Of a stretch of DNA of 64,000 nt, positions 14,143-49,066 are shown in pieces. Numbering within the stretch: the first letter of the stretch is position 1; every line of letters starts with the position of its first letter. The DNA lies in IMG/VR virus record IMGVR_UViG_3300028392_000041, positions 1-64,000 of that record. One strand, given 5' to 3'. The DNA is from a virus. The notes below the pieces were generated by a model. It made no database searches and was not told where the DNA came from. It saw nothing but the letters and a program-made list of their open reading frames with translations. A program made the position numbers and the translations under genes.

Positions 14143-14150
14143 TATTTATA
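14143..14150 (-). promoter_or_regulatory. Perfect T4 late promoter TATAAATA
   Basis: Exact T4 gp55 consensus, 25 nt upstream of the ATG at 14118. Confidence 0.8.
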
Positions 14151-14645: not shown

Positions 14646-15698
14646 TTAACTGGTATATCTAATGATAACGACACCGCCACCACCATTACCACCGACACCT
14701 GATGTTGGAGAAATTGGAGTTGTTGGACCACCACCATATCCACCACCGCCACCACCAGTTCCTGGTGTTCCGTTTTTATCTGTTCCTGGATTATATGTTG
14801 GACTAGTGCCATGACCACCACCACCAGAACCTCCTGGTCCACCAACAATAGAAGGAGAATTTGGTTGATTATAGTGACCACCGCCACCACCACCTGCGTA
14901 GGTAGTTCCATTCAACCATGATGAACCATTACCACCTGCTCCTGTGTTGCTTGAGGTTTCTAGTCCTGCTTGACCAGCTTGAGAAGCACCGCCACCGCCA
15001 CCTGCTTGATAGTAAACACCTGCTGGACCAGCAGAACCACCTGCGTTTCCTTGACCAGGAGTTCCTGATCCACCCGATCCGTTGTCATTTCCACCGCCAC
15101 CGCCAGAACCTCCTGGACCTGCGTTACCGCTACCTGAAACACTACCACCAGTACGAGAAGCACCTGCACCACCACCAATCGCAGTGGTCGGAACAACACT
15201 TATTCCACTATTTCCACCTTGAAATCCATAATTAGAGTAACCATTCCAGCCTGCTGCTCCTGGAGAAGTACCACCACCTGAGCCACCACTACCAACAGTA
15301 ACAGTAACTGTTCCAACAGTTAAAGTTGTTGATCCGTTTACATATCCACCTGCGCCACCACCACCTTGGCCACCTCGACCATCGGTACCAGCACCACCGC
15401 CACCACCAGCAACAATAAGATAATCAACACTCTTAGTTCCTTGTGTAACTGTCAGAGATCCAGACTGAGTCCATGTTTGATAAGTGTAGTTTCCTGATGT
15501 TGTGGTTGTTGCGTTCACATTTGCTGTGGCGAATGCTCCGATACCAATCCATGATGAACTTACTGAATCGTAATATTCAAGATATGAGGTTGTCTCATTT
15601 TGGCGAAGCATTCCGAAACTTCCTGTTGGTCTTTGTGCAGTTGTTCCGACAGGAAGCGTAATCGCTTGTTGACCTAGTATTACTCCATCTCTTGCCAT
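14646..15698 (-). CDS. Glycine-rich putative adhesin/fibre-tip protein, paralogue 1
   Basis: LPVGTTAQRP..GMLRQN N-terminal module; YLIVAGGGGG...GGGGAGG...GGGGVVIIRY polyglycine domain. Confidence 0.7.
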   Translation of the reverse strand: MARDGVILGQQAITLPVGTTAQRPTGSFGMLRQNETTSYLEYYDSVSSSWIGIGAFATANVNATTTTSGNYTYQTWTQSGSLTVTQGTKSVDYLIVAGGGGGAGTDGRGGQGGGGAGGYVNGSTTLTVGTVTVTVGSGGSGGGTSPGAAGWNGYSNYGFQGGNSGISVVPTTAIGGGAGASRTGGSVSGSGNAGPGGSGGGGGNDNGSGGSGTPGQGNAGGSAGPAGVYYQAGGGGGASQAGQAGLETSSNTGAGGNGSSWLNGTTYAGGGGGGHYNQPNSPSIVGGPGGSGGGGHGTSPTYNPGTDKNGTPGTGGGGGGYGGGPTTPISPTSGVGGNGGGGVVIIRYTS

Positions 15699-15710
15699 TT
15701 TAATTCCTAA

Positions 15711-16727
15711 TTATGTTGTATATCTAACAATGACTACACCACCGCCACCAGCAGCACCTGTCAAACTATTTCCACTTGTAGGTTGATTACCACCTGCACC
15801 GCCACCGCCACCACCAGTTCCTGGTGAACCAGCAACAGCTGCAATATTTTTATCAGCGCCACATGCGCCATTTCCGCCACCACCTGCTCCACCATAAGAA
15901 GTTTGTGTTATAGAATATCCGTTTGAGTGATGAGCACCACCGCCACCACCACCTGCGTAGGTAGTTCCATTCAACCAAGTTTTTCCACCACCACCATACG
16001 AAGCAGCTCCTGGCGACGCTTGAGCAGAATTACCACCAGCTTGGTTAGCACCACCACCACCACCACCCCAATAGTAAACATCTGGACCTGAGCCAGAACC
16101 ACCTGCGTTTCCTTGGCCAGAAGTTCCTGATCCACCTGGACCATTGTCTGTTCCGCCACCACCGCCAGAACCTCCTGGGGTTCCATTGTATGGACCAGCT
16201 GGTGCACGACATCCACCGCCACCGCCACCGAGTGCTGTTGTTGGAACACCTGTGAGCGAACTATTGTTACCAGAGTAACCAACGATAATATTTGCTCCTG
16301 GTGCTGATCCACCGCTACCAACAGTAACTGAGTATACACCACCGACAAGTGTCATTGAACCAGAAACATATCCACCTGCTCCACCGCCACCTTGTCCTCC
16401 TGGACCAGTTGTTCCACCACCTGCGCCACCACCAGCGACAACAAGGTAGTCTGCAGATTTAACACCTGATGTAACTGTTAGCGAACCAGACTGTGTCCAA
16501 GTCAAATATGTATATCCACCAGAAGCCGATGTTGTTGCTCCAACACTTTGTTGTTGGAATGCTCCGACACCAATCCAAGATGTTGTTGTTACATCATAGT
16601 ACTCAATATACCCAGTTGTTTCATTTGCTCTAAGCATACCAGAAACACCTGTCGGTCTTTGTGCAGAACTTCCTCTTGGTAGAGCAACATACTGCGCTCC
16701 TAGTATTGATCCATCATTCGCAGCCAT
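15711..16727 (-). CDS. Glycine-rich putative adhesin/fibre-tip protein, paralogue 2
   Basis: Same architecture as 14646..15698. Confidence 0.7.
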   Translation of the reverse strand: MAANDGSILGAQYVALPRGSSAQRPTGVSGMLRANETTGYIEYYDVTTTSWIGVGAFQQQSVGATTSASGGYTYLTWTQSGSLTVTSGVKSADYLVVAGGGAGGGTTGPGGQGGGGAGGYVSGSMTLVGGVYSVTVGSGGSAPGANIIVGYSGNNSSLTGVPTTALGGGGGGCRAPAGPYNGTPGGSGGGGGTDNGPGGSGTSGQGNAGGSGSGPDVYYWGGGGGGANQAGGNSAQASPGAASYGGGGKTWLNGTTYAGGGGGGAHHSNGYSITQTSYGGAGGGGNGACGADKNIAAVAGSPGTGGGGGGAGGNQPTSGNSLTGAAGGGGVVIVRYTT

Positions 16728-16736
16728 TGATATTCC

Positions 16737-17783
16737 TTAAGTTGTATATCTAATAATGATTGTTCCGCCACCACCATTACCACCGACACCTGATGCTGGA
16801 GAAATTGGAGTTGCTGGACCACCACCGTATCCGCCACCACCTCCACCAGTTCCTGGCGAACCATTAATTAATGCATTAGATTGTTGTGGCGATGTTCCGC
16901 GACCACCACCACCAGAACCAGCAGTACCTCCGAGTAAAGTAGAAGTATTTGGACCATTATAGTGGCCAGCACCACCGCCACCTGCGTAGGTAGTTCCATT
17001 CAACCAAGTGGATCCGTTTCCACCAGCACCAGTTGGAGGAGCTTGCTCAACACCTGCTTGACCAGCTTGAGAAGCACCGCCACCGCCACCTGCTTGATAG
17101 TAAGTTCCTGCTGGACCGCCTGATCCACCTGGATTTCCTTGACCAGGAGTTCCTGATCCACCTGAACCATTGTCGTTACCGCCACCACCGCCTGATCCAC
17201 CTGGACCTGCGTTACCAGGAGCGCCACCAGTAATTCTTGATGCTCCTGCGCCACCACCAATTGCTGTAGTTGGGACGGATGTCATAGAACTATTATTACC
17301 TTGGAATCCGTAGTTAGCATAACCACCATATCCAGTAGATGATGGAGAAATAGCACCACCATTACCACCGCCACCAACAGTCATTGTATATATGCCATTG
17401 TTAACTGTTACAGAGCCACTAACATATCCACCAGCACCACCGCCACCTTGTCCACCACGACCATCAGTGCCAGCACCGCCACCGCCACCTGCTACGATTA
17501 GATAGTCAATTGTTTTAGTGCCAGCAGTAACAGACATTGTTCCTGACTGAGTCCAAGTTTGATAAGTGTAGTTTCCTGATTGTGTTGCTGTGTTATTTGT
17601 AAAAGTGGCATTAAATGCTCCGATACCCAACCAAACTGCATTGGTTGCATCATAGTATTCAATATACTTGGTGTCGGAGTTCGCTCTTATCCAACCAAAC
17701 TGTGGTGAACCTGGACGATCTGCAGTTCCACCAACTGGTAATGTTAAAGCCTGTTGCCCTAATATTGCTGTATTAGTTGCCAT
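16737..17783 (-). CDS. Glycine-rich putative adhesin/fibre-tip protein, paralogue 3
   Basis: Same architecture; shares identical DNA blocks with paralogues 1 and 2. Confidence 0.7.
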   Translation of the reverse strand: MATNTAILGQQALTLPVGGTADRPGSPQFGWIRANSDTKYIEYYDATNAVWLGIGAFNATFTNNTATQSGNYTYQTWTQSGTMSVTAGTKTIDYLIVAGGGGGAGTDGRGGQGGGGAGGYVSGSVTVNNGIYTMTVGGGGNGGAISPSSTGYGGYANYGFQGNNSSMTSVPTTAIGGGAGASRITGGAPGNAGPGGSGGGGGNDNGSGGSGTPGQGNPGGSGGPAGTYYQAGGGGGASQAGQAGVEQAPPTGAGGNGSTWLNGTTYAGGGGAGHYNGPNTSTLLGGTAGSGGGGRGTSPQQSNALINGSPGTGGGGGGYGGGPATPISPASGVGGNGGGGTIIIRYTT

Positions 17784-18634
17784 TATTTAATTCCCTGTAA
17801 TTCTTTTACTTGATTATTTAACTCTTTAATTGCCTCAATGAGTAAAGGAACAATTTTTTCATACTGAACAGTTTTATAATTTTCTCCAGAGCGAGAGATC
17901 TCAGTTTCTTCAAATCGAATAATATCGAAGGGAGCTGGTTTAACTGCTTCTGGTAAAACTTTCTCAACATCAGCAGCAAGAACACCGACCTGAGATTCTT
18001 TATTGGTAAAACCAAACGATTCTGCTAATTGGTTGGCATTATAAGTTACACCATTCAGAGCCATAACTTTATTTAATGCATCTGTAATTGGTGTAATATT
18101 TTCTTTTAATCTGGCATCAGAGTAATAAGAAGTAATTTGGTTTGTAGCACGAATTTCGCCTGTAGTTCCTGTTCCAGCAACACCAACACCGATTGATCCA
18201 AATTGCACATTTGACGCAGAAGCCAAATCTTGTGGGGTTGACAGAGTAATTGAACCAGCACCATTAGTAACTGTAATCTGGTTAGTAGTACCAGTTAATG
18301 TTGTTTTTGTGAGAGTATTACCAGTTGTATTACCAATTAAAATTTGACCATTAGTAAATGTAGTTTGACCAGTACCACCAGAAGCCACTGGTAGTGCGCC
18401 ACCTGAGATCGTTAGTCCTGTAGCTGTAATATTTCCAACAGCAATATCGCCAGCACTGTTTCTAAGAACCAATGTGCTTCCAGTATTTGCATAAGACATA
18501 ACACTGGTTTCAATTTTATTCGTGGCAAGACTGATAAAATTATTATCGATTTCTGCGCTGGAAAGTGGCGATCCCTTTACTGTGGGAGCGTATGTTGCGT
18601 CGGTGGAAACTCTGGTTGTCAGGGCTGTGGTCAT
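17783..18634 (-). CDS. Short tail fibre protein with peptidase S74 chaperone
   Basis: KGSPLSSAEIDNNF N-terminal motif; YYSDARLKENI...LLIEAIKEL C-terminus. Confidence 0.78.
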   Translation of the reverse strand: MTTALTTRVSTDATYAPTVKGSPLSSAEIDNNFISLATNKIETSVMSYANTGSTLVLRNSAGDIAVGNITATGLTISGGALPVASGGTGQTTFTNGQILIGNTTGNTLTKTTLTGTTNQITVTNGAGSITLSTPQDLASASNVQFGSIGVGVAGTGTTGEIRATNQITSYYSDARLKENITPITDALNKVMALNGVTYNANQLAESFGFTNKESQVGVLAADVEKVLPEAVKPAPFDIIRFEETEISRSGENYKTVQYEKIVPLLIEAIKELNNQVKELQGIK

Positions 18635-18667: not shown

Positions 18668-19787
18668 ATTTAGTGTATCCAATGCCAGCTGCAATGGCAT
18701 TCCAGCTTTTATCTGGAAATAGGTTAAAACTGTACTGTACATCATTTTCGTTTATTCTATTTAATAATTTTTCTGGCATATAATTATTAAGTTGAAAATC
18801 CTTCCAGAACCCTGTGTCAGCTCTTTGACTGAGGTAGTGAAAGTACAAAAATGATAAAATATCTTCATTCAACTCTTTTACATCATTGTTTACTTTTTCT
18901 GGATTATCTCTATTCTGCACAAATAATTTAAGTGCCATAATCTGAATCCAGATTGATGTTGCTTCCAATGGTTCAATAAATCCTGAAGATAATCCAACTG
19001 CCATACAGTTGTTCACCCAAACCTGTTTATATGCGCCAGCACTAAAATTAAAAGTTCTTGGTGAAACAAAATCGTGTCCAAGATAATCTCTAATTTCTTC
19101 TGCAGCTTCCTCATCTGTTGTCATTGTTGAATCGAAAACATATCCACACCCATAACGACCTTGAACTGGAATCTTCCAGATCCAGCCATATTTCATTGCA
19201 ACAGATTCTGTATAGTCAGGAGAATTATCATTTGGTAGAAAGAAAGGTATGGCACGATTACATGGCATAGGATATTCTTCCCAATCAGACTTATATATTT
19301 CTCCAATTAACAGTCGTTTAAATCCCGAACAATCAAAAAAGAAATCGCCTGATACTGGACCAGCTGGTGTTACAAGACTGGTTATATCTTTATTATCTAG
19401 TAGTACCTTTATTACTTCATTATTAATTATTGTAACACCACGAGATACTGCTACATCTTGTAAATATTTTGCCAATAAAGAAGCATCAAAGTGTAAAGCA
19501 TATTTGTTATCCCAGAAATTATGAAAGTAATGTTCACCATCACCATTCCAGTTTGTAAACTTAATTCCTGTTTTTAATGTTGCTTTACAGTTTGAAACTA
19601 ATTCTAATTCGGTAATACCAACCTCTTCAAGATACTCCATAAAAGCAGGAGTAGTTCCTTCACCAGCACCAAGAATACCAATTTCTGAACTTGCGACTAT
19701 CGTAACTTCATCATCTGGAAAGTTTTTGTTTAAATACAATGCTGTCAACCAACCAGCAGTTCCGCCACCGAGAATGACATATTTCAT
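18666..19787 (-). CDS. Flavin-dependent (tryptophan halogenase-like) halogenase
   Basis: GGGTAG FAD motif, GAGEGT, catalytic-Lys region ATLKTGIKF, WIWKIP (WxWxIP), FIEPLEATSI. Confidence 0.88.
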   Translation of the reverse strand: MKYVILGGGTAGWLTALYLNKNFPDDEVTIVASSEIGILGAGEGTTPAFMEYLEEVGITELELVSNCKATLKTGIKFTNWNGDGEHYFHNFWDNKYALHFDASLLAKYLQDVAVSRGVTIINNEVIKVLLDNKDITSLVTPAGPVSGDFFFDCSGFKRLLIGEIYKSDWEEYPMPCNRAIPFFLPNDNSPDYTESVAMKYGWIWKIPVQGRYGCGYVFDSTMTTDEEAAEEIRDYLGHDFVSPRTFNFSAGAYKQVWVNNCMAVGLSSGFIEPLEATSIWIQIMALKLFVQNRDNPEKVNNDVKELNEDILSFLYFHYLSQRADTGFWKDFQLNNYMPEKLLNRINENDVQYSFNLFPDKSWNAIAAGIGYTK

Positions 19788-20311
19788 TTAAAGTGTGTAG
19801 AAATTGCTATCGACAATCTCATCTCTTGACTTAAATTTGATTCAACAGAATGAACAATATATCCTGGAAAAATTAATAGCATTCCTGGAACTGGAGTAAT
19901 TTTATGGTAAGGTCTATAAGACTGCCATGTTACATCTGTTCTTGCTTGTGGGTCTTGCCATAATATAGATCCTCTTGGATCATGTAGTAAAATATCACCA
20001 GAGTTTTCTGGAACTTTAACATAGTAAACAACAGCCAACATACACTCAGGGTGATGATGTGGAGAATTATTTCCTCCTGGCATCGTAGGATTTTGTCTAG
20101 CAGATAGCGTAAAATATTTTGAAAGTTTACATTCTTCTGCAACTGATTCAATGTATGGTAAAACAATATCTTTTAACTTTGGCGCAATATGAAAATAATC
20201 AGAACCCTGTGTATAGTGTGGTGCCAGCGCAAGCAATTCCTGATTCAACATACCAGAATCAGATATCACTGTTTGCCAAACAGGAGTTGTAAATAAAGTT
20301 TCTTTATTCAT
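19784..20311 (-). CDS. 2OG-Fe(II) oxygenase (TIGR02466-like); start re-assigned to MNKETLF
   Basis: LFTTPVW, HHH...AVVYYV, DPR, GMLLIFPGYIVHSV, RLSIA; ATG at 20311 overlaps the upstream stop. Confidence 0.82.
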   Translation of the reverse strand: MNKETLFTTPVWQTVISDSGMLNQELLALAPHYTQGSDYFHIAPKLKDIVLPYIESVAEECKLSKYFTLSARQNPTMPGGNNSPHHHPECMLAVVYYVKVPENSGDILLHDPRGSILWQDPQARTDVTWQSYRPYHKITPVPGMLLIFPGYIVHSVESNLSQEMRLSIAISTHFK

Positions 20312-20840
20312 AAATCGACATGGCAATTGATAATCTAAGAGTTCCGCTAAAATTTGGCTCAACTGAGTGTATCAAATAACTTGGAAATAAAATAAGCATC
20401 CCAGGTTTGGGTGTTATTCTATGATATATTCTTTGAGTTTTTCCAGTATCTTCTGTTCTGGCGTTTAAATCTGGCCAATCAGTTCCACCTCTTGGATCAT
20501 GCAGCAAAATATCTCCACAATTTGATTCTGCTTTAACATAATAAATACCAACCAATTTATGCCCATGATGGTAGTGTGGTGTATCTAATTCGTTTGGAAA
20601 TAATGGTCTTTGTGTTCCATGTATTCCTTTAGGTTTATTTCTCCAATTATACTGAACAGAAATTTCGTCACATATTTCTTTCATTTTGTATTTTAATTTT
20701 TTAATATTATCACCAGCAAGATCGAAATAATTTCCGCTGGTAAATAACATACCTTCTCGTTCAAGAGCAGTATTATCGAGTAAACCTTTTAAATCAAGAA
20801 CCCATAAAGGAGTTCCAAACATTATATTATTCTGCAGCAT
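20304..20840 (-). CDS. 2OG-Fe(II) oxygenase (TIGR02466-like)
   Basis: HYH..GIYYV, GDILLHDPRG, GMLILFPSYLIHSV, RLSIA; paralogue of the adjacent gene. Confidence 0.82.
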   Translation of the reverse strand: MLQNNIMFGTPLWVLDLKGLLDNTALEREGMLFTSGNYFDLAGDNIKKLKYKMKEICDEISVQYNWRNKPKGIHGTQRPLFPNELDTPHYHHGHKLVGIYYVKAESNCGDILLHDPRGGTDWPDLNARTEDTGKTQRIYHRITPKPGMLILFPSYLIHSVEPNFSGTLRLSIAMSIYE

Positions 20841-21519
20841 TACTTTTTTTAATCAGTTCCTGTAAATTATCAATCGCCCAATAATGATTTTCTTCAATTT
20901 CATAAATTAATTCTGAGATTGCAAAACAAACATTATATGTTTTTACTTTAGGATTAATCTTATCTATAATGTCAATGTTAGCCACTACCATTAATGGTCT
21001 TTCGCAATCCATAGAAGAAATAACTTTGGGATCTTTTATGTATTCAATTGCTAAGTTATTTACTTTATCAAGAGCTAATAATTTTTGCTCTAATACCTGT
21101 AATGGTTCGCTCTTTATAATTACCAATTCGGGTGGCATTTCATGTAGGATTACAAAATCCATATTTGGTGGACGAACAAAATAAATAAGTTTTCCACGAT
21201 TATATAGAGGACTATGTCCAGCAATTAATGATCCAGAATTTTCCATGTCTGGACATGGACAATTAAATAAATGCTCAAAGGGTAATTGTTTATATGAGTC
21301 TCCATCAATAATTCTGTTTGGAACTAAAAATGCTATCTCTACAGGTTCTTCTTCTGTTCCACGATCACCTTTTACAATGTAATCCAAAAATACACAATCT
21401 TTGTCTTCAACTTGACTTAACACATACTCTGGTGGATCGAGCACCTCAAGAGAAATGACGCATTCTAATTCTTTGGCTGCATCAATAAATTTTTGTAAAT
21501 TTGGGGTAATTGTTGCCAT
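20827..21519 (-). CDS. Hypothetical protein in the modification cluster
   Basis: 230 aa ORF tightly packed between the SPASM gene and the oxygenase; no motif recognised. Confidence 0.6.
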   Translation of the reverse strand: MATITPNLQKFIDAAKELECVISLEVLDPPEYVLSQVEDKDCVFLDYIVKGDRGTEEEPVEIAFLVPNRIIDGDSYKQLPFEHLFNCPCPDMENSGSLIAGHSPLYNRGKLIYFVRPPNMDFVILHEMPPELVIIKSEPLQVLEQKLLALDKVNNLAIEYIKDPKVISSMDCERPLMVVANIDIIDKINPKVKTYNVCFAISELIYEIEENHYWAIDNLQELIKKSNAAE

Positions 21520-21520
21520 C

Positions 21521-22969
21521 TTATGCCTCTACTTTTGATTGTCCGTATACCTGAACATCATCAATTTGAGTAACAATCTCGCTCACCACTTTAATAGGTA
21601 TAACTTTCTTTTTTGTTTTTTCTTTATGCTCGAACTGTGTTCCCCAAATATCTTGTCGTTCCAATGGAAGAACATCATTTTTAATTAGAACAGGAACATA
21701 ACCTCTAGTCATCTTTTCAAACCCTAATGCAAATAAAGCAATATTATCTGAGTATGCATTGTCGCAAGAAACTTCCCATAGTTCTCCATCAAGGAACATA
21801 CAAGAACCTTTACAAATATGTAGGACTGGACATGCTGAACATTCTTTACGATTTCTCCAATGTGTTGCAGTTTTAACAGCTACATTATCATAATCTTCTA
21901 AAGTTCCAGATAAATGACTTTCTCCATTCATACCAGTTTCAACTGGAGAAACATTTTGACAAGTCATAACATTACCACGAAGATCAATGGCTAATGTGTT
22001 TTCTTCATCCATTCCACACTTCTGACCAACAAATTTTGCGTTTCTGTGAGTAAGAACTGATGTAACAAACTGATCAACTTTTGTCGTAATCATTGTAAAA
22101 CCAATATTACCATTATTAGAGTAAATATCATTAAATGATAATTTTCTAAAATCAAAATGTTCTTGTTTTGTGTTTAATGAACTTTGGGCACCATCTGCGT
22201 CATACGCATCAACAATAGTGCCTTCGCCAAGAACAATATTTTCGTCGCCAGTAAAATTAATAAACCAATTATGTATATCTTTACGACTTTGATTTTTTGC
22301 ATTAAGCATAGAGTTAAAACTCATGCGTCCCTGTTTTTTCATAATACGATAAAAATCAAGAACTATTTTTTTCTGTTCTGGATCTTCAAATGGATCTGGA
22401 CCACGAACTGATTGTCCTGGACCATCATGACTTATGGCTACCGAAAATCCCATGTAGTACAGCCATTGACAAATTTCTTTGGTTAAAATAGAACCATTAG
22501 TTATAACACTGAATTTTGGTTCAACTTTCCAATCAGAAAATCTTTCGCGAAGTGCTTCAGCCAATGGTTTTAATGTTTTCCAATAAACAAAAGGTTCGCC
22601 ACCCCAAAATTCAATTTTAAGACCAGCTTGTTCAGAGAAATTTAAAACATCAAGTTTTTCTAAAAAAGCGTCAATATCTTTTTTAGATGTTTCTGGTGCT
22701 CTTTCCACAAATTTTTGCGAACAATAATCGCAAGAATAATTACAAGATAAACCAAGTTGAATCTTCAATAGAGTTATATCTTTAGATTTTTTTATTGGAT
22801 TAGTTTTATCAAATGGCAAAGACTCTTTTCGAGTTTCTGGTTGGCGTTGATCTTCTGGGTATTCTATAACGACACCCTCGTGATTGGTTAAAGTATTAAT
22901 CTCATTGTCGTAGAAGAAAACCTTCTTATCATTATCACCAAGTCGTTCAGCATGAATTTCAAAAATCAT
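21521..22969 (-). CDS. Radical SAM/SPASM-domain maturase
   Basis: CNYSCDYC, FWGGEP, ITNG, ISHDGP; SPASM cysteines KCG...MTC...CSACPVLHICKGSC...SC. Confidence 0.9.
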   Translation of the reverse strand: MIFEIHAERLGDNDKKVFFYDNEINTLTNHEGVVIEYPEDQRQPETRKESLPFDKTNPIKKSKDITLLKIQLGLSCNYSCDYCSQKFVERAPETSKKDIDAFLEKLDVLNFSEQAGLKIEFWGGEPFVYWKTLKPLAEALRERFSDWKVEPKFSVITNGSILTKEICQWLYYMGFSVAISHDGPGQSVRGPDPFEDPEQKKIVLDFYRIMKKQGRMSFNSMLNAKNQSRKDIHNWFINFTGDENIVLGEGTIVDAYDADGAQSSLNTKQEHFDFRKLSFNDIYSNNGNIGFTMITTKVDQFVTSVLTHRNAKFVGQKCGMDEENTLAIDLRGNVMTCQNVSPVETGMNGESHLSGTLEDYDNVAVKTATHWRNRKECSACPVLHICKGSCMFLDGELWEVSCDNAYSDNIALFALGFEKMTRGYVPVLIKNDVLPLERQDIWGTQFEHKEKTKKKVIPIKVVSEIVTQIDDVQVYGQSKVEA

Positions 22970-22993: not shown

Positions 22994-23413
22994 TTACCAG
23001 CAAGCACAATCACAAACAAAACAATTACATTGACATTGACACGCACAATTTACCCATTGATCTTGGTTCTGCGTGCAGTTATATGTAGTGGCACAATTTG
23101 TTCCAGGCTGTAAATATGATTGTGTATCACAGTTTGCGCAATTAATCGTATTACAATTTGAACAGTTATTACATTGAGCAGTACCACCTGTTCCTGGAGC
23201 TATTCCAGTTAAACTTTCTGTACAGTTACCATTGTTACAATTACCATCAGCATTGCGTTGGTAATAATTTAACCCATGAAGACTATTATAGTCTGTTGGA
23301 TTACCCTTAGTGTTATCTTTAATCCAGTCGATGCCAGTCTGCGTGGTTGTTCCGCGACCTGTTTCGTTATTAACATCGCTAGTTGCTATTGCTCCAGATG
23401 CTGGTGTTGTCAT
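22994..23413 (-). CDS. Cys/Asn-rich protein, candidate substrate (precursor) of the adjacent radical SAM enzymes
   Basis: 139 aa with 17 Cys in the C-terminal ~80 aa, 10 of them as NC dipeptides; ends NCACQCQCNCFVCDCACW; N-terminus MTTPASGAIATSDVNNETGR resembles small phage virion-protein N-termini. Confidence 0.7.
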   Translation of the reverse strand: MTTPASGAIATSDVNNETGRGTTTQTGIDWIKDNTKGNPTDYNSLHGLNYYQRNADGNCNNGNCTESLTGIAPGTGGTAQCNNCSNCNTINCANCDTQSYLQPGTNCATTYNCTQNQDQWVNCACQCQCNCFVCDCACW

Positions 23414-23444
23414 GACTTTACCTTGATTGCCTTGTATACAGTAC

Positions 23445-23452
23445 TATTTATA
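23445..23452 (-). promoter_or_regulatory. Perfect T4 late promoter TATAAATA driving the Cys-rich gene and downstream enzymes
   Basis: Exact consensus 32 nt upstream of the ATG at 23413. Confidence 0.8.
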
Positions 23453-24974
23453 ATGCTCCAACCATAGATTTATATTCTAAAAACTTGTTAGAATTTAAGG
23501 ATGGTATATCATATTTTTTTATAGTTTCTTCTTCTGAGAGAGAGTAAATATCTTCCAAAGATATCCCAGTAGATAGGGCTGCAGGAACATAAAAGCCAGA
23601 TATCTTATTCATTGGGTTTCTGAGATCGTTAAACTTATTGGCTATATCTAAACACATACGATAGTTTAATTTTTGAGTTTTTAAATCCCAACAGTATTTT
23701 AAATCTTCTTGGAAGGTATATCCATAAACCTCTGGATTGATACTAAATTCTGAACCATATTTAGAAAGTGGATCTTCTTTTCCATAATTAAACATCATTA
23801 ATGGATAATATAAAATAGATTGTAATGGGTTATCTTCTTCTAAACTCCAAGACAAGAGTTCATTAAAATATGCAAGATTATCGTATGGGAGACCAAGGAT
23901 AAAGCCAGCTTCCATATTAACTTTATTTTCCCATTTTTCGCGAAGCCAATATAATCTATCTTTTACTTTATTTGGATTTAGTCCTTTACCAATTGCTTTA
24001 GCCGATTCTGGTTGCATTGTTTCTAAACCAAAAAAATTACCAACCAATCCCATATCCGTAAGCAAATCAGCTTGATGTGGATATTTGTTAATTAAATCAA
24101 TCCTAAGATAAGTAGAAAATTTTGGTTTAAATGGTAAGGAAGTAAATAGTTTGTGGAGTATTTCTAATTTATCATTATCATCATTAAATGTATCATCAGT
24201 AAAAAAGTAAGTGTCTGTCCCGTGAATTTCCCAAGTCTTAATTAGTTCATCTCGCACTTGTTCTAAATCGCGAACATATGTGCCTTTCTTTTTACCAGTT
24301 AGAGCATATGAACAAAATTTACATTTAAAAATACAGCCACGACCAAGTTCAATTGGTAATGCTTCACCTTTTAAAATTGGATAGTTCCACCAGCGAGTTG
24401 GAATATTTTTTACATCTGGTTCTGGAAATTTGGTAGAGTCAATAATTCTACCAAAAGAATTTAAAGATTTACCTGCCAAGTAATCGGTCAATGCAACTGT
24501 AGATGTATCAGCGTAACCAAGAACATAATGATCAATGTTACGATCTTTCATAAACCATGGGGTTCTTGCACCACCAAAAATTATTTTTGCTTGACTGTTG
24601 GAACGAACGAATTCAAATAATTGTTCTATTTCAGAATAATTTTCTGTATAATACATATCTTCAACATCATTATTACCTCTTGAATCTGCAACTCGTTCTT
24701 TAAATGTTTGATTTGGTCTCTGTCTTTGCCAAAAGAAAGTAGAAGAAAATCCAATCCAAAGAGTTTCTTTGCCAATATGTTTTTTTAAAACATTTAAAAT
24801 TTCTTCAATCGTAAATTTGTTTATGTAATCTAAAACAAATGTAGAATATCCAGCATCTTCTAAAGCTGATGCGAGTCTATATGGACCAAGAGATCTATAA
24901 ACAGAACAACGATCTTCAGAATTCCATGTTCCGCCAGATAATATAATACAGTTAGACAATATATGTCCCTTCAA
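23448..24974 (-). CDS. Radical SAM protein with a B12-binding-like N-terminal domain (class B methyltransferase-like architecture)
   Basis: LGPYRLASAL..AGY, IGFSSTF, IIFGG N-domain; ELGRGCIFKCKFC; FTDDTFND; FGLET; FILGLP. The true start may be a TTG at about 24959. Confidence 0.8.
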   Translation of the reverse strand: MKGHILSNCIILSGGTWNSEDRCSVYRSLGPYRLASALEDAGYSTFVLDYINKFTIEEILNVLKKHIGKETLWIGFSSTFFWQRQRPNQTFKERVADSRGNNDVEDMYYTENYSEIEQLFEFVRSNSQAKIIFGGARTPWFMKDRNIDHYVLGYADTSTVALTDYLAGKSLNSFGRIIDSTKFPEPDVKNIPTRWWNYPILKGEALPIELGRGCIFKCKFCSYALTGKKKGTYVRDLEQVRDELIKTWEIHGTDTYFFTDDTFNDDNDKLEILHKLFTSLPFKPKFSTYLRIDLINKYPHQADLLTDMGLVGNFFGLETMQPESAKAIGKGLNPNKVKDRLYWLREKWENKVNMEAGFILGLPYDNLAYFNELLSWSLEEDNPLQSILYYPLMMFNYGKEDPLSKYGSEFSINPEVYGYTFQEDLKYCWDLKTQKLNYRMCLDIANKFNDLRNPMNKISGFYVPAALSTGISLEDIYSLSEEETIKKYDIPSLNSNKFLEYKSMVGAL

Positions 24975-25533
24975 ATACTAAACAAATTCTTGGTATATCG
25001 CTATTGTGAATACTTACTGCATGTGGAATATCTGGAGAGTGTATAACAAGTCTACCTGTTCTTGATTTGATAGTTGTTATTTTAGATTCATCATACTCAT
25101 AATAGTGTGTATTAAATTTACCACCATTAATGAATAGTAGGTTTGCTCCATCTTCTGGCACTTGGTAATAAAAAATTGCAACGAAGTCTGGTTTCTTTGC
25201 TAAATTTTCATTTATATGAGCGTGAACCAAACCCTCACTATTCTTCATCATTTTATTACACCAAGATTTGGTGTAATTTATTCCAGACGCTTTTGGGTTT
25301 GCTATTAAAACTTTTTCAGTTATCCAGTCTACTAATTTACCTGCTCCTGGCATATTAACAATATCAGACCAGTCGTTTCCAACTGAAGTCAAAACATTTC
25401 CCTGTGCTGAGTCGTATTTAGAACCTTGTTCTCTGTTTATAACTTGTGGGAGTTCTAGTAATAGATTTATACTAGCAGATAATAATGAATTTTGATACAA
25501 CGATGTATCATCACATTGAATAATGTGTAACAT
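24952..25533 (-). CDS. 2OG-Fe(II) oxygenase-like protein
   Basis: SWCN, HAH, AIFYYQVP, GRLVIHSPDIPHAV, RICLVF. Confidence 0.72.
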   Translation of the reverse strand: MLHIIQCDDTSLYQNSLLSASINLLLELPQVINREQGSKYDSAQGNVLTSVGNDWSDIVNMPGAGKLVDWITEKVLIANPKASGINYTKSWCNKMMKNSEGLVHAHINENLAKKPDFVAIFYYQVPEDGANLLFINGGKFNTHYYEYDESKITTIKSRTGRLVIHSPDIPHAVSIHNSDIPRICLVFEGTYIV

Positions 25534-25551: not shown

Positions 25552-26796
25552 TTATTTTAATGCTTGAATCTCTGCTCTCAGTTCTTTAATTGCTTCAATA
25601 ACCAATGGCATCATACGAGCATAATCAACTGTTAAATACTGCGCATCAATCGGAGCTGGACCAACAATTTCTGGTAGTACTGATTCAACTGACTGAGCAG
25701 AAACACCAACTTCTTTCTTAACAGTATATCCTAAATCTTGAGCAGTTTGATTGGCTTCAAAATAGAACCCTTCCAATGAACAGAGTTTGTCCAAAGCATT
25801 TTCAATTTTACCAAGTTTATTTTTTAAGCGATCGTCAGAATAATAACCAGTAATGTTGCCAGTTGCAGTTATATTTCCAGTAACAGCAATTCCATTTGCT
25901 GTAATAGAACCACTTGCAGACAATGATGTTGTATTAATACTACCATTAGCATATAATCCGCCAGTAATAGAAGCTGTTCCAGCTACAGTAGCATTGCCAG
26001 ATAAAACTAATGATGTAATAGAAATTCCTGATGATGCTGGAAGATCAACAGAAATATTTCCACCAACACCACTACCATTAGTAATAACAATACCATTACC
26101 ATTGGTAACAATTGATCGTTGAATAACAGAACCAGCACCAAGACGAACATAGATTCCAGTTGCTGAGTTTGCTGCAGCAATACCTGTTAATTCGTTTGAG
26201 AATGGTTGAACATCAGAACCAAGCTGAAGCCCAAGGTTAGAACGAGCAGCAGAAGCAGTCGCTGAGCCAGTTCCACCATCGGCAATTGCCAAAGCAGTTG
26301 TAAGACCAGAAATTGTTCCGCCAGTAATAGCAACAGCACTTGCTGCCTGTGTTGCGATAGTCCCTAATCCAAGGTTAGAACGAGCAGAAGAAGCAGAAGA
26401 TCCGCCTGTTCCACCATTATTAATAGCAACTGTGCCCGAAACATTGGTTGCGTTTCCACTTAAAGTTCCAGTTACATTACCTGTAACATTACCAGTTAAA
26501 TTCGCAATTACTGTAGTAGCACGAACTGTTCCAGCAAAAAGATCTCCATTAGAATCGCGAAGAGCAATAGTATTTGCCGTTGCTGCAGAGTCAGAACTAT
26601 ATCCATCCAACAAGTCAGCATCTAAACCAGAACCAGTTCCATCAACAGTTTTCAATTTGGTAAGAACATCAGCTGCAGTGTAGGAAGCTGATGGCAAAGC
26701 AAGATTTAACTGTGTATTGATATTATTAAAGTTATCGTCGACCTCTTGGTTTGAGAGAGGACTTCCTTTAATAGTGCGTAGCGTAATTGATGCCAT
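25552..26796 (-). CDS. Tail fibre protein with peptidase S74 chaperone
   Basis: KGSPLSNQEVDDNF, DGTGSGLDADLLDG, repeated GGTG..A..ARSNLGL, YYSDDRLKN...VIEAIKEL. Confidence 0.82.
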   Translation of the reverse strand: MASITLRTIKGSPLSNQEVDDNFNNINTQLNLALPSASYTAADVLTKLKTVDGTGSGLDADLLDGYSSDSAATANTIALRDSNGDLFAGTVRATTVIANLTGNVTGNVTGTLSGNATNVSGTVAINNGGTGGSSASSARSNLGLGTIATQAASAVAITGGTISGLTTALAIADGGTGSATASAARSNLGLQLGSDVQPFSNELTGIAAANSATGIYVRLGAGSVIQRSIVTNGNGIVITNGSGVGGNISVDLPASSGISITSLVLSGNATVAGTASITGGLYANGSINTTSLSASGSITANGIAVTGNITATGNITGYYSDDRLKNKLGKIENALDKLCSLEGFYFEANQTAQDLGYTVKKEVGVSAQSVESVLPEIVGPAPIDAQYLTVDYARMMPLVIEAIKELRAEIQALK

Positions 26797-27035
26797 TAAT
26801 TTTCCTTATTAATCAACTGTTGCAACATAGTTTTTATGTCGTTGATATCATGTTCAAGTCTATTTATCTTTTCGTTCTGGACCTGGATTTGATTAACTCT
26901 ACCAAGCATAATATCCTTATTTCTAAGGTATGTTTCATACTCTGATCTATTTGTATTAACAATCGCATTGGAACCCAAATCCCTTACGAGAGATGGGTTT
27001 CCTTCAACATGTAACATATTTTCCATTATGTGCAA
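26796..27035 (-). CDS. Conserved small T4-like phage protein
   Basis: VEGNPSLVRD..SNAIVN plus a C-terminal coiled coil; typically follows VrlC-type genes. Confidence 0.65.
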   Translation of the reverse strand: MHIMENMLHVEGNPSLVRDLGSNAIVNTNRSEYETYLRNKDIMLGRVNQIQVQNEKINRLEHDINDIKTMLQQLINKEN

Positions 27036-30000
27036 GCAATAACTCTTAGATCTCTAACTCTTGTTACTTCAGAACTGTTAGTTGAAGTAAATACCAATTT
27101 AACAGTAAATGCGTCAAATGCAGTTAAACCAGTTATTGTATAATCAACATCGGTGAACGGAGTATCTCCATACTGAACTTTAGGGAACAATGTATCAGGT
27201 GTTACCAAAACATAGTTAATAGTTGAGTAAGAGTTTTTAGTTCCAACTGGACTTGTTTTATAGTAAACTAACAAATTAGAATATGTTGGAGAATTAACTG
27301 ACATACGAATCTTCAATGTATTAGCAGGACTTGCTAAACTTACTTTCTTAGTAACATATTTACTATGAGTAGAACTACCTCTTGGAGAGATCTCATCAAT
27401 AAAGGTATTTCTAAATACCAAAGTAATATTGTCACCAGCAGCAACGGCAGAAAGAGCATTAGGCATTGTTATAGAAACAGAAGAACCATCAGCAGCAACG
27501 GCAGTTATTAATCCAGTTTGATTATTTCCTGAAGTTCCAGAACCACTAATTGTTACATATTTTCCAACCTGTAAAGTAGCCAATAATCCTTTGGCAGTTG
27601 AGTCGGTCGAAGAAATACCAGTAGTAGTTATAGCAATCTTGTTTTGACTTCCACTATTGATACTTGAAGAAATTAAAGCAATTTGATCTAAATCTCCATA
27701 GTTAACAACAGACTCAGATGGAGAGTTTATAGTATTACTAATCGCGATCAATCCCATTCTGTTACTGTCAATTACTGGAGAAACAGCATCATTTGTAGTG
27801 CTAATTTGTGCCTGAAGTGTAAGAGTTTTTCCAGGAGTTGCCATCAAACTTTGATTGGATGTTGATGCGATAAGTCTTGGGGTTGACCAATAATTGTTAC
27901 TATTAATTGCCACTGCGTTAGCAAGACCATTTGTAAGCGAGTCTAGTGTATATGGAGATTGTGTATTAGGAGTATCATTAATAGATTCACCGCTTGTGGT
28001 TTGCATATAGAATACTGTACTAGTATCAGCAAAATCTTGATACTGCGCTTGTGGTTGAGCAGCATTATATTGAATATTACCAATAGCAGTAACTGTATCA
28101 CCACCAGAGTATCCAGTTTTCTTTCCAGTAGTTGTTGTTATGATAACATAAGAGTCGTTATCAATAACTCTATCTACTGTTTTCTGACCATAAATTTCTG
28201 TAACTGGAATACCATTAACGGAAGGAGCGATAGTAAATGCGCCAGTATAAGTAACTGCTGAGTTAACAACTAGAGTTGCTGCAGTATCTCCTGGGGTTCC
28301 ACTTGTTACAGAAGCAATAACACCAATTAATCTTGGAGTTGTTTCAGCTGTATAAAGAACAGCACCTTGACCGCTTGTTAATGTTCCGATATCTGTTCTA
28401 AACACAGTACCAGTACCAGTAACTGCAGTTGTTCCAGTATTTACGGAAATTGTTCCAGATGTTGGAGTATATCCGTAAATATTTCTTGAATCATTATCGG
28501 ATAAGACAGCATATGAAGAAGCAATTAATCCATGATTAGGATGGAATACTTTTAATTTCGCTGAACCAATATTTGTTTCAAACGGATTATTATCTAAAAC
28601 AGTTTTATTAATAACATCATTACTAAACTGAACAGCTCCGATTGTATTTGTTTGGAATACTGCTCTGTTTAAAGTAAACTTCAAATCTTGGTCTTGATTA
28701 GCAGTCCAAGTAGATCCATTCTGAGATTTAAACAGAACACCAGCATATGGTTGTTCGGAAATCATTCGACTAGATCCTGGGATTTGATCTCCCATATTTG
28801 AAATCCACGCTTTGTAGCTATTAGAATCAGAAGCAACAACTAAAGCATACTCTCCCAAATCCTGAACATAAACAGGCGATGGGAATGTAAATCTAGTTGG
28901 AGTATCATAACTTGGAACAATCGTTCCATCTGGCAATGTTACAGTATTTGTGGAAATATTAACTTGTTCAGGATTTAATGTTACTTGTGAAAATGGTAGG
29001 ATTGTTTTTCCTGGAGCACCATTAATAACTTCACGAATCTCAATATGAACAGGAATCCTTTTATCTCTAGTGGCAAAAAATAAATCAACTGAAGTTAAGA
29101 ATGCGCCACCTCTAGATTGAATCTGGAAAGTTTGGGCAAGTGGGTCGTAATAAACGCTACCGCTACCAACTAAACGAGATGTTGTTTGGGTAATAGTTTG
29201 TGTATCAGAAACTTGATTCTGAACTAGAATACCATTTCTAGTAGACATATATGTCGCTTGTTTTGTTTCAAGAACACCTTGCGCATAATATTGACCATTA
29301 CCCTTACTTGTGTAAGTAACATCGTTTGTTGAGACATCAGTTAAAGTAAATTGACGCTGACCAGTACGGAAACGAACTAAGTCTGTAGATGGAATAGTAA
29401 ATAACATCTGAACTTTACCATTCACATCAGTATAAATTGAACTACCAGCTGATTTAATAGTACCAACTGTAATAGCAGTTCCAGTTACTAAACTTACACT
29501 TCCTCTGATAGATTCGCCTGTAGCAAATGTTCCTTTAATATTAACAACATAGATATTTCTTGCTGTAACATTTCCAGAATCGTCCAAGATTTTTTCTGTT
29601 CCAACAACAACAGCAGTTGCTCCAGAAGCAGTAATTCCACTAGCTCCAATTCCAGTAACAACATCTCCAGTATTTAAACAAATATTTGTATCGCCATTAA
29701 TTAAACGAGCTGTATCTGTTGTATTTGCTCCGACATTTGATGTAGAATCAAAATCTACAGCACCACTATAAGTGATCTTAGTGGCAGGAGTGCAATAAGC
29801 ATCAACGGCAACATTATCAAAGAATGGATAAAATTTAGTATATGGTTTTAATCCACTAGTTTGAATTAAAATATTTCTTGAACGAATATATGGAATAACT
29901 GCAGTAGAAAGAACACGATCGTTTACTAACTGTGTATCAATCTTAGCAACAACTTTTGTATTAACACCTGTTCTAGATTGACCAACTACAGTGGCAGTTG

Positions 30001-33000
30001 TATCTGTTACAGTATAACTACCAGCATATCTACCCCAGCCACCATTTAAACTGTAATCTCCTCCAGTAGCACCATATGGATTATAACCAGCATAGTCGCG
30101 AGTAGTGACGGAAGTTCCTGTCCATTGAGTTTCCCAAGCATTCCAAACAGTTCCAAGAACTCCTGCCTTTTCAGCAAGAGTTGCGATAGTATTAAAATCG
30201 CCTTCTTGATTTTGTACAATATCTGGACGACGATTTACTTCAAACCAAGTGTCGCTTGGTGGATTCAACTCAACATTGCCCAAGAAAGTAAAGATTGAAA
30301 ATGGGTTAATATTTTCTATACGAGAAGCATATGGTTGGGTAATAATCGGTGTAGTAGTATATGGTAATGTGATTAGATTACCAGTAATTTTATAATTTGC
30401 TGCAGAACGAGCTGTATCAGTTGAAACTTTTTCAATTAAATTTACATTCTGCATAGAAAAGAATGGACGGAGTTCGTTCTTTTCCATATCAATAGCGCAG
30501 TAGTAATCAACATTGGCTGCATCACCAACACTATGGCCACTGAAATTATCAACCATAAAACCATTTTTAAAACGATTTAGTCCTGTAGCTGGATCTGTGA
30601 TAGTCAATGATTCTGTTTGTTGTTCAAGCAATGACAATGATGTATAATACTCAATGTTATTAATTCTTGCTTCTAACTTACCAATATCACGCATTGTATA
30701 GCGTTTGTTTTCAATTTTTGTTACTCCAACACTTTCTGGAGCTGTTGAGAATGTGTATGGTTCAAGTCTAAGAGTATAAAGAACCATAGAATCTTTTGGA
30801 TCTGGTGGTTCTGCAGGATTAAGATCAGGTGTTCCTGATCTACTGAAAAACTTACCAGTTTTATCAATCGCAATTTTATCAATTCTTGCCAAGTAATATG
30901 AAAAATCTGTTTGTATTTCTTGTCCACGCTTAGGAACTAAATTTGATCCTGCATCAAAAGTAGAACCATCAGTAGAAATTCTTGGGCGGAAATCGATAGA
31001 ATCTCTTAATGAAATATTTCCATAGTAAGGAATTCTCTTATAGTCAATATCTTTGTAAGAATTTACTGAACAATAATCCCCACCACTATGTGTGAAATAT
31101 TCAAATGTAACTTGCACTGGACCACTTGGAACAGTGAACGATGGTTTTAAAACCAGTTTTGATATACCATAGTAAGTAGATGTTTGACCATTATCGAATG
31201 TGTAGTGATCGCTAATATCAATAGTATAAGTTCCATTCGGACTAGCAAATGTTCCAGCATCCATAAGAACACTAGTAACACGATATCCGTCAGCCTGTCC
31301 AAGACTTAACAGAGTTACTTGTGCAGCTGCTTGAGTTGTAAAAGTAACTGTTCCTGGATTTAATGTCTTAACTTTTTCTGTACTTGATGCGCCAGTTTTA
31401 GCAATAGTGGCAATAACACTGAAACGACTTGTTCCAACATATCCTGTTCCTGAAAGAACTAGGTAACCAGTTGTGGTTCCGATATTACTATCAATCGGTT
31501 CAACAATTAAACCAGTAGTATTATCAATAACAATGTAATTTACTTTAGTGTAAGGCGCAAGAACACCAGAAGTAGTGCTAAGACTTACTTTTGTATTTCC
31601 ACTAAAAGTAGTTCCAGCAAGAGAATCAAACTTTTGATATGCGTAATAAGTTGTTTTATTTGTAGTTCCATCTAAAGCACGCAATGATTTAATTCCAAAA
31701 TATGGAAGTTCAAAAATCATTTTTTCATTTTGTGGTTCAACAAGTGTAGTAGAAACACGATCAATAGTAACGCCAGTTACTGTGGTTGCTTGATCAACGA
31801 CAATAGAATTCTGTGAAGAAATAGTAACAACACGACGATATGTTCCACCTAAAGAAACATAATCACCAACGACTAAATCTGTCTGAAAAGAGGTACCAGC
31901 ACCAGTAATTGTTGTGCTAGAAGAAGCAGTTGCAGAACCAACTAAACGAGTAGCCACTGGGACAATATCAGCAGAAAAATCAACAACTGATCCACCACCT
32001 GAATTATCGTAGTAAATTCCTTTAACATTACGCTTAAAGTCATAACCACTGGTCATTTTTATATCAAATAAACCAAGTTTATATTGAGCAGAGGTTGAAC
32101 CGATTGTTCCAGTATCCCACTCAATAAAACGAATACGAGCAGTACCGATAAGTCTTGAAGAAATATAAGAGATACCAGTGTTAGCTGATGCAGCATTGGC
32201 AGTCAATGTTAAAGAAGTATCAGAAGCAATGCTTAGTACAGTTCCAATCGCAGTACCATCAGTTTTACGGATAATACTACCAACAACATGCTGCGTTGAG
32301 AACTTCGTAGAAGTTCCAGTAATTGTTGCTGAACTTGTAGTTGTTGTAATAGTTCCTGGCTGAACTCCTGAAGGTGGAATACCTGGAAGGGCAGTTGCTA
32401 ATCCTGTAGTTGTAAAATTTGAATATAATCCAACAGTTGGAAATGTATCAACAAAAGGAACTGAGTTTACAGAATTTACTAAAACATAGTTACCAACTGT
32501 TGCTGGTTGGAATGCCCCAGCCACTTGAACTGTATGGGCATCATTTCGACATTTATTAATGTATACATATTCAGTTGCAACTTTTTCTAACTCGTAACCA
32601 CTGACATATGCTTTTCCTGGATCGAGCGCAATTGCTAACTGACCATCAGATCCAGTTTTACTAATTCCACGATTAAACGAAGGAACAAGAGTATATTCCC
32701 AATTGATACCACCAGCGCCATCATAAGCCGAACCAGTAGTATGTGACGGAGCAGTACCAGCAGATGTTCCAGTATTTTTGGCAGTATAGTAATTTCCATT
32801 TACTAAAATTACATCACCAATTATATAAGAAACACCAGTGGTCGTCCATGTTCCACGATTATTATCTCTTGCTTCGCGAACATCAACATTAAAAGGACGA
32901 ACAGTGTAGTTACCAGACTCATCATAGGTACGACGAGCCATTGTTTTTTCTAACTCTGAGTATTGTGTTGTATTAACAATGCGAATAATCGTTCCATTAG

Positions 33001-42277: not shown

Positions 42278-42285
42278 TATTTATA
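42278..42285 (-). promoter_or_regulatory. Perfect late promoter TATAAATA
   Basis: Exact consensus, 6 nt upstream of the gp25 ATG. Confidence 0.75.
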
Positions 42286-49063: not shown

Positions 49064-49066
49064 ATA
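49059..49066 (+). promoter_or_regulatory. Perfect late promoter TATAAATA
   Basis: Exact consensus, 5 nt upstream of the gp2 ATG. Confidence 0.75.

Follow-up and report, generated by a model that had tools for sequence, protein, structure and literature searches.

A cysteine- and asparagine-rich protein linked to a radical-SAM/SPASM enzyme in the fibre block of a T4-like aquatic phage: a candidate modified virion protein

Background

Why should a tailed phage carry, in the midst of its fibre genes, a small protein packed with cysteine (Cys) and asparagine (Asn) and, directly after it, a radical S-adenosylmethionine (SAM) enzyme of the SPASM type? The question is raised by IMG/VR virus record IMGVR_UViG_3300028392_000041, of which positions 1 to 64,000 were analysed here (the window, which is the initial 64 kb of a 112-kb contig). 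The record belongs to an uncultured, aquatic, T4-like myovirus: homologues of baseplate wedge, hub and gp32 proteins are present in the window, and, judged by gp6, it comes nearest among cultured phages to Methylophilales phage Melnitz (41%) and Pelagibacter phage HTVC008M (39%). An unbroken block of fibre, virion and baseplate genes occupies the minus strand between about 4.5 and 37 kb, and both genes lie within it. A previous, sequence-only reading of the locus had proposed that the small protein (hereafter the Cys/Asn protein) is a candidate substrate of the enzyme, with a leader/core design in which the leader doubles as a virion-docking domain.

We consider it probable, though well short of certain, that this T4-like aquatic phage expresses the protein late, incorporates it into the virion in association with the fibres and modifies it by means of the adjacent SPASM enzyme. 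The case is built on direct observations of five kinds, namely the sequence pattern, its conservation in a family, a gene linkage that holds in both directions, domain fusions and the class of the enzyme.

Results and discussion

The Cys/Asn protein and its family

The gene and its parts are the following:

22994 to 23413, minus strand: open reading frame (ORF) of the Cys/Asn protein, 139 aa
23246 to 23413, minus strand: N-terminal domain, residues 1-56 (MTTPASGAIATSDV...), Cys-free, with a motif kept in 114 homologues and a predicted independent fold
22997 to 23245, minus strand: Cys/Asn core, residues 57-139, holding 17 Cys, and Asn-Cys pairs of which eight are conserved; presumed modification site
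22997 to 23050, minus strand: C-x-C ladder and terminal tryptophan (Trp), residues 122-139, NCACQCQCNCFVCDCACW, as read in the sequence

There is no Cys in residues 1-58; the first is residue 59, and all 17 fall within the last 81 residues, while Asn amounts to 22 residues overall. The core of 83 residues (57-139) contains, besides its 17 Cys, 15 Asn and 7 Gly, and no Lys, Arg or His at all. The protein has 10 NC dipeptides, four CxxC and six CxC motifs, and ends in NCACQCQCNCFVCDCACW, with the codon of Trp139 at 22997-22999. When the core was shuffled 100,000 times, 10 or more NC dipeptides were obtained in only four cases. The composition is thus as the sequence-only reading had described it, except that the end coordinate given there (23452) lies beyond the ORF start at 23413 and marks the outer limit of the TATAAATA box considered below. 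Pfam, PHROGs and NCBIfam contained no match for the protein, nor did the PDB contain a sequence match for the core, and PDB sequence searches with family profiles returned chance-level matches only. Similarly, neither the protein nor the locus matched any entry of a 50,697-record phage collection at the DNA or protein level, a result to which low-complexity filtering may contribute.

Metagenomes, on the other hand, supplied 77 close and 85 representative homologues, and a search with a profile of the N-terminal domain retrieved 562 proteins. In an alignment of 114 family members (A3), the pairs N58C59, N63C64, N83C84, N91C92, N94C95, N106C107, N112C113 and N122C123 are each present in at least 89% of the homologues, and C81, C125, C127, C134 and C136 are likewise conserved, so that conservation in the core is confined almost entirely to Asn-Cys pairs. 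The N-terminal motif to which the sequence-only reading had drawn attention is also conserved, with the family consensus MTLPASGxIxxSDV. A scan of 185,579 species genomes with alignment A1 disclosed three contigs carrying the family (one Polynucleobacter assembly and two metagenome-assembled genomes), and the family is essentially viral. Contig L159, of 28.7 kb and with a coverage of ~277 in the isolate assembly of Polynucleobacter sp. JS-Safj-400b-B2, possibly stems from a phage that was co-cultured or induced, and would then be a clue to the host.

The sequence-only reading had also envisaged homologues of the N-terminal domain with swapped C-termini. This was mostly rejected: among the best 105 newly retrieved profile matches, 104 had at least five Cys (nearly all of them at least 14) and were members of the same family, and no protein turned up when residues 1-56 served as a single-sequence query against longer proteins. 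What remained of the idea were two locus proteins only (L030, 6557-7642, and L020, 1802-2848) in which the first ~30 residues are common and the body is different, one of them with similarity to a tail-fibre PHROG.

Linkage to the SPASM enzyme

The enzyme is encoded immediately downstream:

21521 to 22969, minus strand: radical-SAM/SPASM enzyme, 482 aa, starting 24 nt past the stop of the Cys/Asn protein

The co-occurrence of the two genes is near-obligate both ways, which bears out the link that the sequence-only reading had drawn. IMG/VR loci retrieved via the protein contained a SPASM homologue in 80 of 80 cases, on the same strand and with 44-83% identity, usually adjacent to the Cys/Asn gene and in either gene order. 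Conversely, loci retrieved via the enzyme alone contained a family member in 72 of 80 cases. Two more encoded other ladder proteins, that is, a fibre ending NCNCDCNCNCCGGA (L157) and an 85-aa protein ending CACDCVCDCACVCG (L158), and in the last six the enzyme gene was at the contig end or no more than ~270 nt from it, with one flank missing. On a tree of 94 enzymes, the C-terminal type of the substrate changed 9 times, as against 38 expected from shuffles; therefore, enzyme and substrate are inherited as a unit. This two-way linkage is the strongest evidence that the protein would be the substrate of the enzyme, a role deduced here from gene content.

As to its class, the enzyme matched PF04055 Radical_SAM (34.7 bits, cut-off 29.5) and SPASM TIGR04085 (34.6 bits, cut-off 27), the latter being the only NCBIfam model passed. 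The CX3CX2C motif (C76/C80/C83) is present, as is the seven-Cys SPASM motif for two auxiliary clusters (CX9-15GX4C ... CX2CX5CX3C ... C), which here corresponds to C318-x13-G332-x4-C337, C377-x2-C380-x5-C386-x3-C390 and C402, and the ten cluster Cys are all invariant in 49 homologues. At the family level, the top NCBIfam matches were models of maturases that modify Cys or form thioethers, namely PapB (ranthipeptide), QhpD, CcpM (Cys-rich peptide) and the geopeptide maturase, all far below their cut-offs (PapB model NF047865, E 5e-21, 75.2 bits, cut-off 340; QhpD equivalog TIGR03906, E 6e-18, 64.6 bits, cut-off 453). In the AlphaFold2 (AF2) model, which had a mean predicted local distance difference test (pLDDT) score of 91, only three N-terminal strands (residues 3-29) precede the core, and there is no helical bundle or winged-helix recognition element. 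The nearest solved folds are those of the anaerobic sulfatase-maturating enzyme anSME, CteB, ChlB, TigE and SuiB, with Foldseek E ~5e-11, TM ~0.5-0.65 and 14-17% identity for anSME (PDB 4k39) and CteB (PDB 5why). CteB has an N-terminal recognition domain, which is missing from our model, and anSME is not known to have a recognition element. The likeness to anSME is one of fold and of a protein substrate, which here is putative; both it and CteB are distant at the quoted identity, and the sulfatase motif is absent from the Cys/Asn protein. We conclude that the enzyme is a new branch of the peptide- and protein-modifying SPASM enzymes. Its reaction is, by analogy, likely to be thioether formation with Cys-Asn links, because the putative substrate is rich in Cys and there is a precedent in NxxcB, which joins Cys to the beta-carbon of Asn in a Cys-Asn beta-thioether (PMC9389541).

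A different chemistry has to be weighed at this point. The Cys could be metal-bound, or become disulfide-bonded after lysis, with no Cys-carbon links, and the enzyme could carry out another reaction on this or on a neighbouring protein (formation of formylglycine, or modification of Asn, Trp or Tyr). The top structural match of the enzyme is indeed anSME, and the paired CxxC motifs are reminiscent of the knuckles of zinc ribbons or rubredoxin, a profile search having also matched, weakly, the SPT4 zinc finger. Metal in a fibre has a parallel in T4 gp37, where iron is held by a HxH ladder. Disulfide-linked fibres, in turn, are documented in the freshwater cyanophage Pam3 (PMC9942802). However, this explanation accounts neither for the near-obligate two-way linkage to the enzyme nor for the conserved Asn beside nearly every conserved Cys. 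Moreover, the substrate motif of anSME is absent (no CxPxR or CxAxR in 139 aa), and the anSME equivalog TIGR03942 scored 53.4 bits against a cut-off of 349. We therefore regard it as unlikely in this exclusive form, although metal binding or post-lysis disulfides are possible alongside thioethers or instead of them.

Domain fusions and fibre context

Longer homologues (n=28) carry additional, self-processing domains straight after the ladder, Peptidase_S74 in eight of them and a Hint/intein-like domain in ~10. The S74-fused forms read ...CNCFW followed by SDDxLK, and the Trp of this motif aligns with the last residue of the 139-aa protein. The latter has no Peptidase_S74 domain itself (no Pfam match) and would correspond to the processed form of the S74-fused homologues, since cleavage by the S74 chaperone at the ladder/S74 junction, at the aligned Trp, would leave the same mature end. 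The commonest form of the family is longer, of ~290-300 aa, and has after the ladder a C-terminal domain of ~170 residues (CSKIICxKLYExG...YRGYIRWARIVTAWMDGKGPDF...PWSxHMAYLMG) which has a basic tail and, close to its end, a hydrophobic aromatic segment (for example in P0163, P0205 and P0222, and in loci L020, L025, L034 and others). Pfam, PHROG and Atlas offer no name for this domain; in Atlas, the cluster closest to it (score 0.92) comprises 133-aa viral hypothetical proteins.

The ladder is also found at the end of fibres proper. In Achromobacter phage JWF, the gp36-like gp028 (L082, 2703-4154) has NCNCDCNCNCSC followed by a Hint domain; in Ralstonia phage RSP15, ORF048 (L081, 2431-3303), a "side tail fiber", ends NCQCGN; and the true fibre of the uncultured phage in L157 (3069-4028) is the one with the ending quoted above. 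All three are beside a 45-47% identical radical-SAM enzyme, and in JWF and RSP15 the enzyme (gp030 and ORF045, respectively), with 45% identity, is encoded two or three genes away from the ladder fibre. These two phages are experimentally tractable carriers of ladder fibres. In addition, an S74-tailed fibre gene ends at most 150 nt upstream of the family gene in 12 of the 81 loci that could be assessed.

These observations bear on whether the Cys/Asn protein is part of the particle. In T4, gp38 and gp57A are non-structural chaperones of the fibres, and the protein could similarly be a helper that stays outside the virion, either as a chaperone of assembly or as a donor of Fe-S or sulfur to the enzyme, whose real substrate would be one of the large fibres. 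The large fibres of the window have no ladder of their own, and the hydrophobic segment in the common 170-residue extension would suit such a role. In other phages, however, the fibre polypeptide itself contains the ladder, fusions to S74 and Hint domains are typical of structural proteins that undergo maturation, and the conserved Asn-Cys pattern looks like that of a substrate and not like that of a cluster scaffold. A helper of this kind is, in our opinion, very unlikely.

Fold of the N-terminal domain

The AF2 monomer gave a pLDDT of about 90 (87-91) over residues 1-55 and a confidence below 50 for the Cys/Asn core. When compared with 48,161 PDB chains, the N-terminal domain had a single match with Z of at least 2, the N-terminal fibre-docking domain of gp38 of Salmonella phage S16 (6f45_D), which was weak (residues 2-45, Z 2.5, root-mean-square deviation 2.2 A over 41 residues). 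A BFVD fold search returned one homologue, all other matches having E >1, including a protein with a gp38 domain at E 3.6.

A folded N-terminus matters for a further interpretation, in which the protein is the precursor of a ribosomally synthesised and post-translationally modified peptide (RiPP), with a 56-residue leader and a modified core that is cleaved off as a diffusible peptide of antimicrobial, signalling or host-manipulating activity. The adjoining SPASM maturase and extra tailoring enzymes fit this scheme, as do the strong promoter box of the gene and the fact that the top matches of the enzyme are RiPP maturases. Yet AF2 predicts the supposed leader to be a confidently folded domain, and a winged-helix recognition element is missing from the enzyme model. 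Scanning of the ORFs at 18.6-27 kb (Pfam, PHROGs, NCBIfam) revealed no protease or exporter family, fibre-maturation domains are attached to homologues, the ladder also terminates true fibres and the entire gene block is structural. A RiPP precursor is accordingly improbable. For the same reasons (the folded residues 1-55, no winged-helix element and no protease or exporter family) the leader/core design of the sequence-only reading is not supported, whereas the virion and fibre context that it proposed is supported indirectly by the fibre block, the late box, the S74/Hint fusions, the ladder fibres and the weak gp38 match.

The promoter box

The gene is preceded by a box of its own, of which the window has four copies:

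23445 to 23452, minus strand: TATAAATA box, T4-late-promoter-like, 31 nt before the ATG and overlapping the 3' end of the B12-type radical-SAM gene
42278 to 42285, minus strand: TATAAATA copy
14143 to 14150, minus strand: TATAAATA copy
49059 to 49066, plus strand: TATAAATA copy

The arrangement noticed in the sequence-only reading, with the box 31 nt upstream and the SPASM gene 24 nt downstream, was found as described. Four copies against ~6 expected per strand represent no enrichment. A T4-type late promoter is nevertheless plausible because all four stand 6-31 nt upstream of a start codon.

The modification cassette

The Cys/Asn and SPASM genes are part of a cassette bounded by two Peptidase_S74-tailed fibre genes. 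Its order is 2-oxoglutarate (2OG) oxygenase, B12-type radical-SAM enzyme, Cys/Asn protein, SPASM radical-SAM enzyme, a 230-aa protein, two 2OG oxygenases and a Trp-halogenase homologue. Apart from the two genes already listed, it consists of:

25552 to 26796, minus strand: tail-fibre protein whose C-terminus is a Peptidase_S74 chaperone; marks the cassette's upstream edge
24952 to 25533, minus strand: 2OG-Fe(II) oxygenase (accessory), Pfam PF13759, phrog_81; in 17 of 18 loci in which the protein has a free Trp end
23448 to 24974, minus strand: B12-binding-type radical-SAM enzyme, 508 aa; only part of the family has this accessory tailoring gene; NCBIfam matches all far below cut-off
20827 to 21519, minus strand: 230-aa protein directly after the radical-SAM gene, kept only in the closest loci (31-61% identity)
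20304 to 20840 and 19784 to 20362, minus strand: two 2OG-Fe(II) oxygenase genes, Pfam PF13759
18666 to 19787, minus strand: compact flavin-dependent Trp-halogenase homologue, 373 aa, Pfam PF04820, E 8e-95
17783 to 18634, minus strand: second S74-tailed fibre protein; downstream edge of the cassette

Searches of Pfam, PHROGs, NCBIfam and Atlas provided no family or fold lead for the 230-aa protein, and it is not similar to the proteins that adjoin the enzyme in RSP15 or JWF. On either side of the cassette, two other arrangements were observed. At 27026-33817 (minus strand), a 2263-aa structural protein followed by a 79-aa phrog_473 virion protein lies directly upstream of the S74-tailed fibre, an order that recurs in loci L012-L014, L035 and L064. 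Directly downstream of the cassette and its S74-tailed fibre, at 14646-17783 (minus strand), there are three tandem paralogues of ~340-350 aa, rich in polyglycine runs (GGGGGAGG...), which resemble the polyglycine adhesin bodies of the gp38 type.

For 97 non-redundant family members, the mature C-terminus was scored. A Trp-halogenase homologue was in the locus of all 20 Trp-ending members (18 bare forms and two S74-fused forms with ...CFW before SD) and of only 3 of the 77 others; the lone S74 form ending ...CLF had none. A B12-type radical-SAM homologue (>40% identity) was similarly distributed, with 11 of 20 Trp-ending members against 1 of 77 others. Gene order varies among the Trp/halogenase loci. 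On the enzyme tree, however, the two traits change only ~2-3 times, with one or two independent pairs, which leaves a sign test powerless, and the Fisher p-value of the link is not independent evidence, as there are only ~2 independent events. The association is thus suggestive and statistically not established. It brings to mind the maturation of QhpC, in which cross-linking by a radical-SAM enzyme is followed by the action of a flavoprotein on Trp (PMC7876137), the counterparts here being the halogenase and the terminal Trp.

A possible mechanism

Under the explanation that we favour, the protein would be a small structural protein, transcribed late and made of two parts. The folded N-terminal domain of 55 residues would probably dock it to the fibre or baseplate, and the second part would be an Asn/Cys-rich body of 80 residues with the C-x-C ladder and the terminal Trp. 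The SPASM enzyme would modify this body before or during assembly. SAM would be cleaved to a 5'-deoxyadenosyl radical, which would take a hydrogen from the acceptor residue. Asn is the obvious choice as acceptor, because a conserved Asn stands beside nearly every conserved Cys. The acceptor carbon would then be joined to a Cys thiolate bound on an auxiliary Fe-S cluster, and the product would be a protein with several thioether staples for which no oxidising compartment is required. In this subfamily, the Trp halogenase, the three 2OG oxygenases and the B12-type radical-SAM enzyme would probably tailor the same protein, and the C-terminal Trp may be the target of the halogenase. The most elaborate version of this scheme, in which a fibre-tip protein is stapled by multiple Cys-Asn thioethers and then decorated by the halogenase (at the C-terminal Trp), the 2OG oxygenases and the B12 radical-SAM enzyme to give a redox-proof, host-contacting tip, should be viewed as a tentative proposal.

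Several points weigh against a modified virion protein. We infer both its presence in virions and any modification from sequence. The resemblance to gp38 comes without sequence support, given that there was no Pfam or PDB sequence match even at E 10. Metal binding could be all that the CxxC and CxC knuckles do; anSME, whose reaction is the oxidation of Cys to formylglycine without cross-linking, appears in the models to be an equally close fold, and none of the maturase models reached its curated family cut-off. The 170-residue domain of the commonest form, with its hydrophobic segment, might point to a location outside the virion. Finally, the oligomeric state can only be inferred and the hints diverge, the S74 fusions suggesting a trimer and a gp38-like cap a monomer.

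Comparison with known systems

A close parallel is the QhpC/QhpD/QhpG system, by which the gamma subunit of quinohemoprotein amine dehydrogenase is matured: the small protein QhpC receives three intramolecular Cys-Asp/Glu thioethers from QhpD, and one of its Trp residues is subsequently modified by a flavoprotein (PMC7876137). Both systems combine a small Cys-rich protein (and not a short peptide), a SPASM-type enzyme and a flavoenzyme that acts, or here would act, on Trp. They differ in that our enzyme is not a QhpD member (65 bits against 453), the acceptors would be Asn instead of Asp/Glu, the cassette has no QhpE protease, QhpF exporter or dehydrogenase subunits, and the product would be a phage structural protein and not the subunit of an enzyme with its cofactor. 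The pairs PapB/PapA (freyrasin) and NxxcB/NxxcA are similar in that a SPASM enzyme adjoins a Cys-rich substrate, dominated in our case by Cys and Asn. In contrast to their short leader peptides, the substrate here is a 139-aa protein with a folded N-terminal domain; furthermore, there is no recognition-element fold and no protease or exporter, the setting is a phage fibre module and the cut-off of PapB is not reached.

Among phage proteins, the T-even-type fibre-tip adhesin gp38 of S16 (PDB 6f45) is likewise a small protein of the fibre module, with an N-terminal domain of ~50 residues and a compositionally extreme body, and in 12 of 81 loci the family gene directly follows that of an S74-tailed fibre. 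The body is different, being Asn/Cys-rich here and not a polyglycine sandwich (7 Gly in 83 residues), and gp38 is not known to need a radical-SAM enzyme. With the fibres and spikes that carry S74 (PF13884), the family shares the S74 domain after the ladder (8 of 28 longer homologues), and the 139-aa protein ends just before the point where S74 starts; it is, however, without S74 and far shorter than known S74-tailed fibres.

Conclusions

The maturation of a Cys-rich polypeptide by a SPASM enzyme is known, and what would be new is its application to a protein of a phage fibre module. Secreted peptides and a single enzyme subunit (QhpC) are the known cases of such cross-linking, and none was found described for virus particles: literature searches on radical SAM with tail fibre or thioether, SPASM with phage, phage RiPP with virion, and JWF yielded no description of the system. 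The oxygenase/halogenase arrays of cyanophages have been proposed to be pathways for the synthesis of small molecules (PMC2938197). If our explanation is true, it would provide a function for these puzzling arrays in marine and freshwater T4-like phages. Many aquatic phages, and cultured phages of Achromobacter and Ralstonia, would then staple a protein at or near their host-binding fibres, a way of stabilising virions or of recognising receptors that would be new in principle and does not depend on disulfides. The pair of scaffold and enzyme would be compact enough to be of interest for protein engineering. In the most elaborate version of the scheme, and as far as the literature search showed, no virion protein would have been reported earlier as both cross-linked and halogenated by enzymes, and the system would be the viral counterpart of QhpC/QhpD/QhpG.

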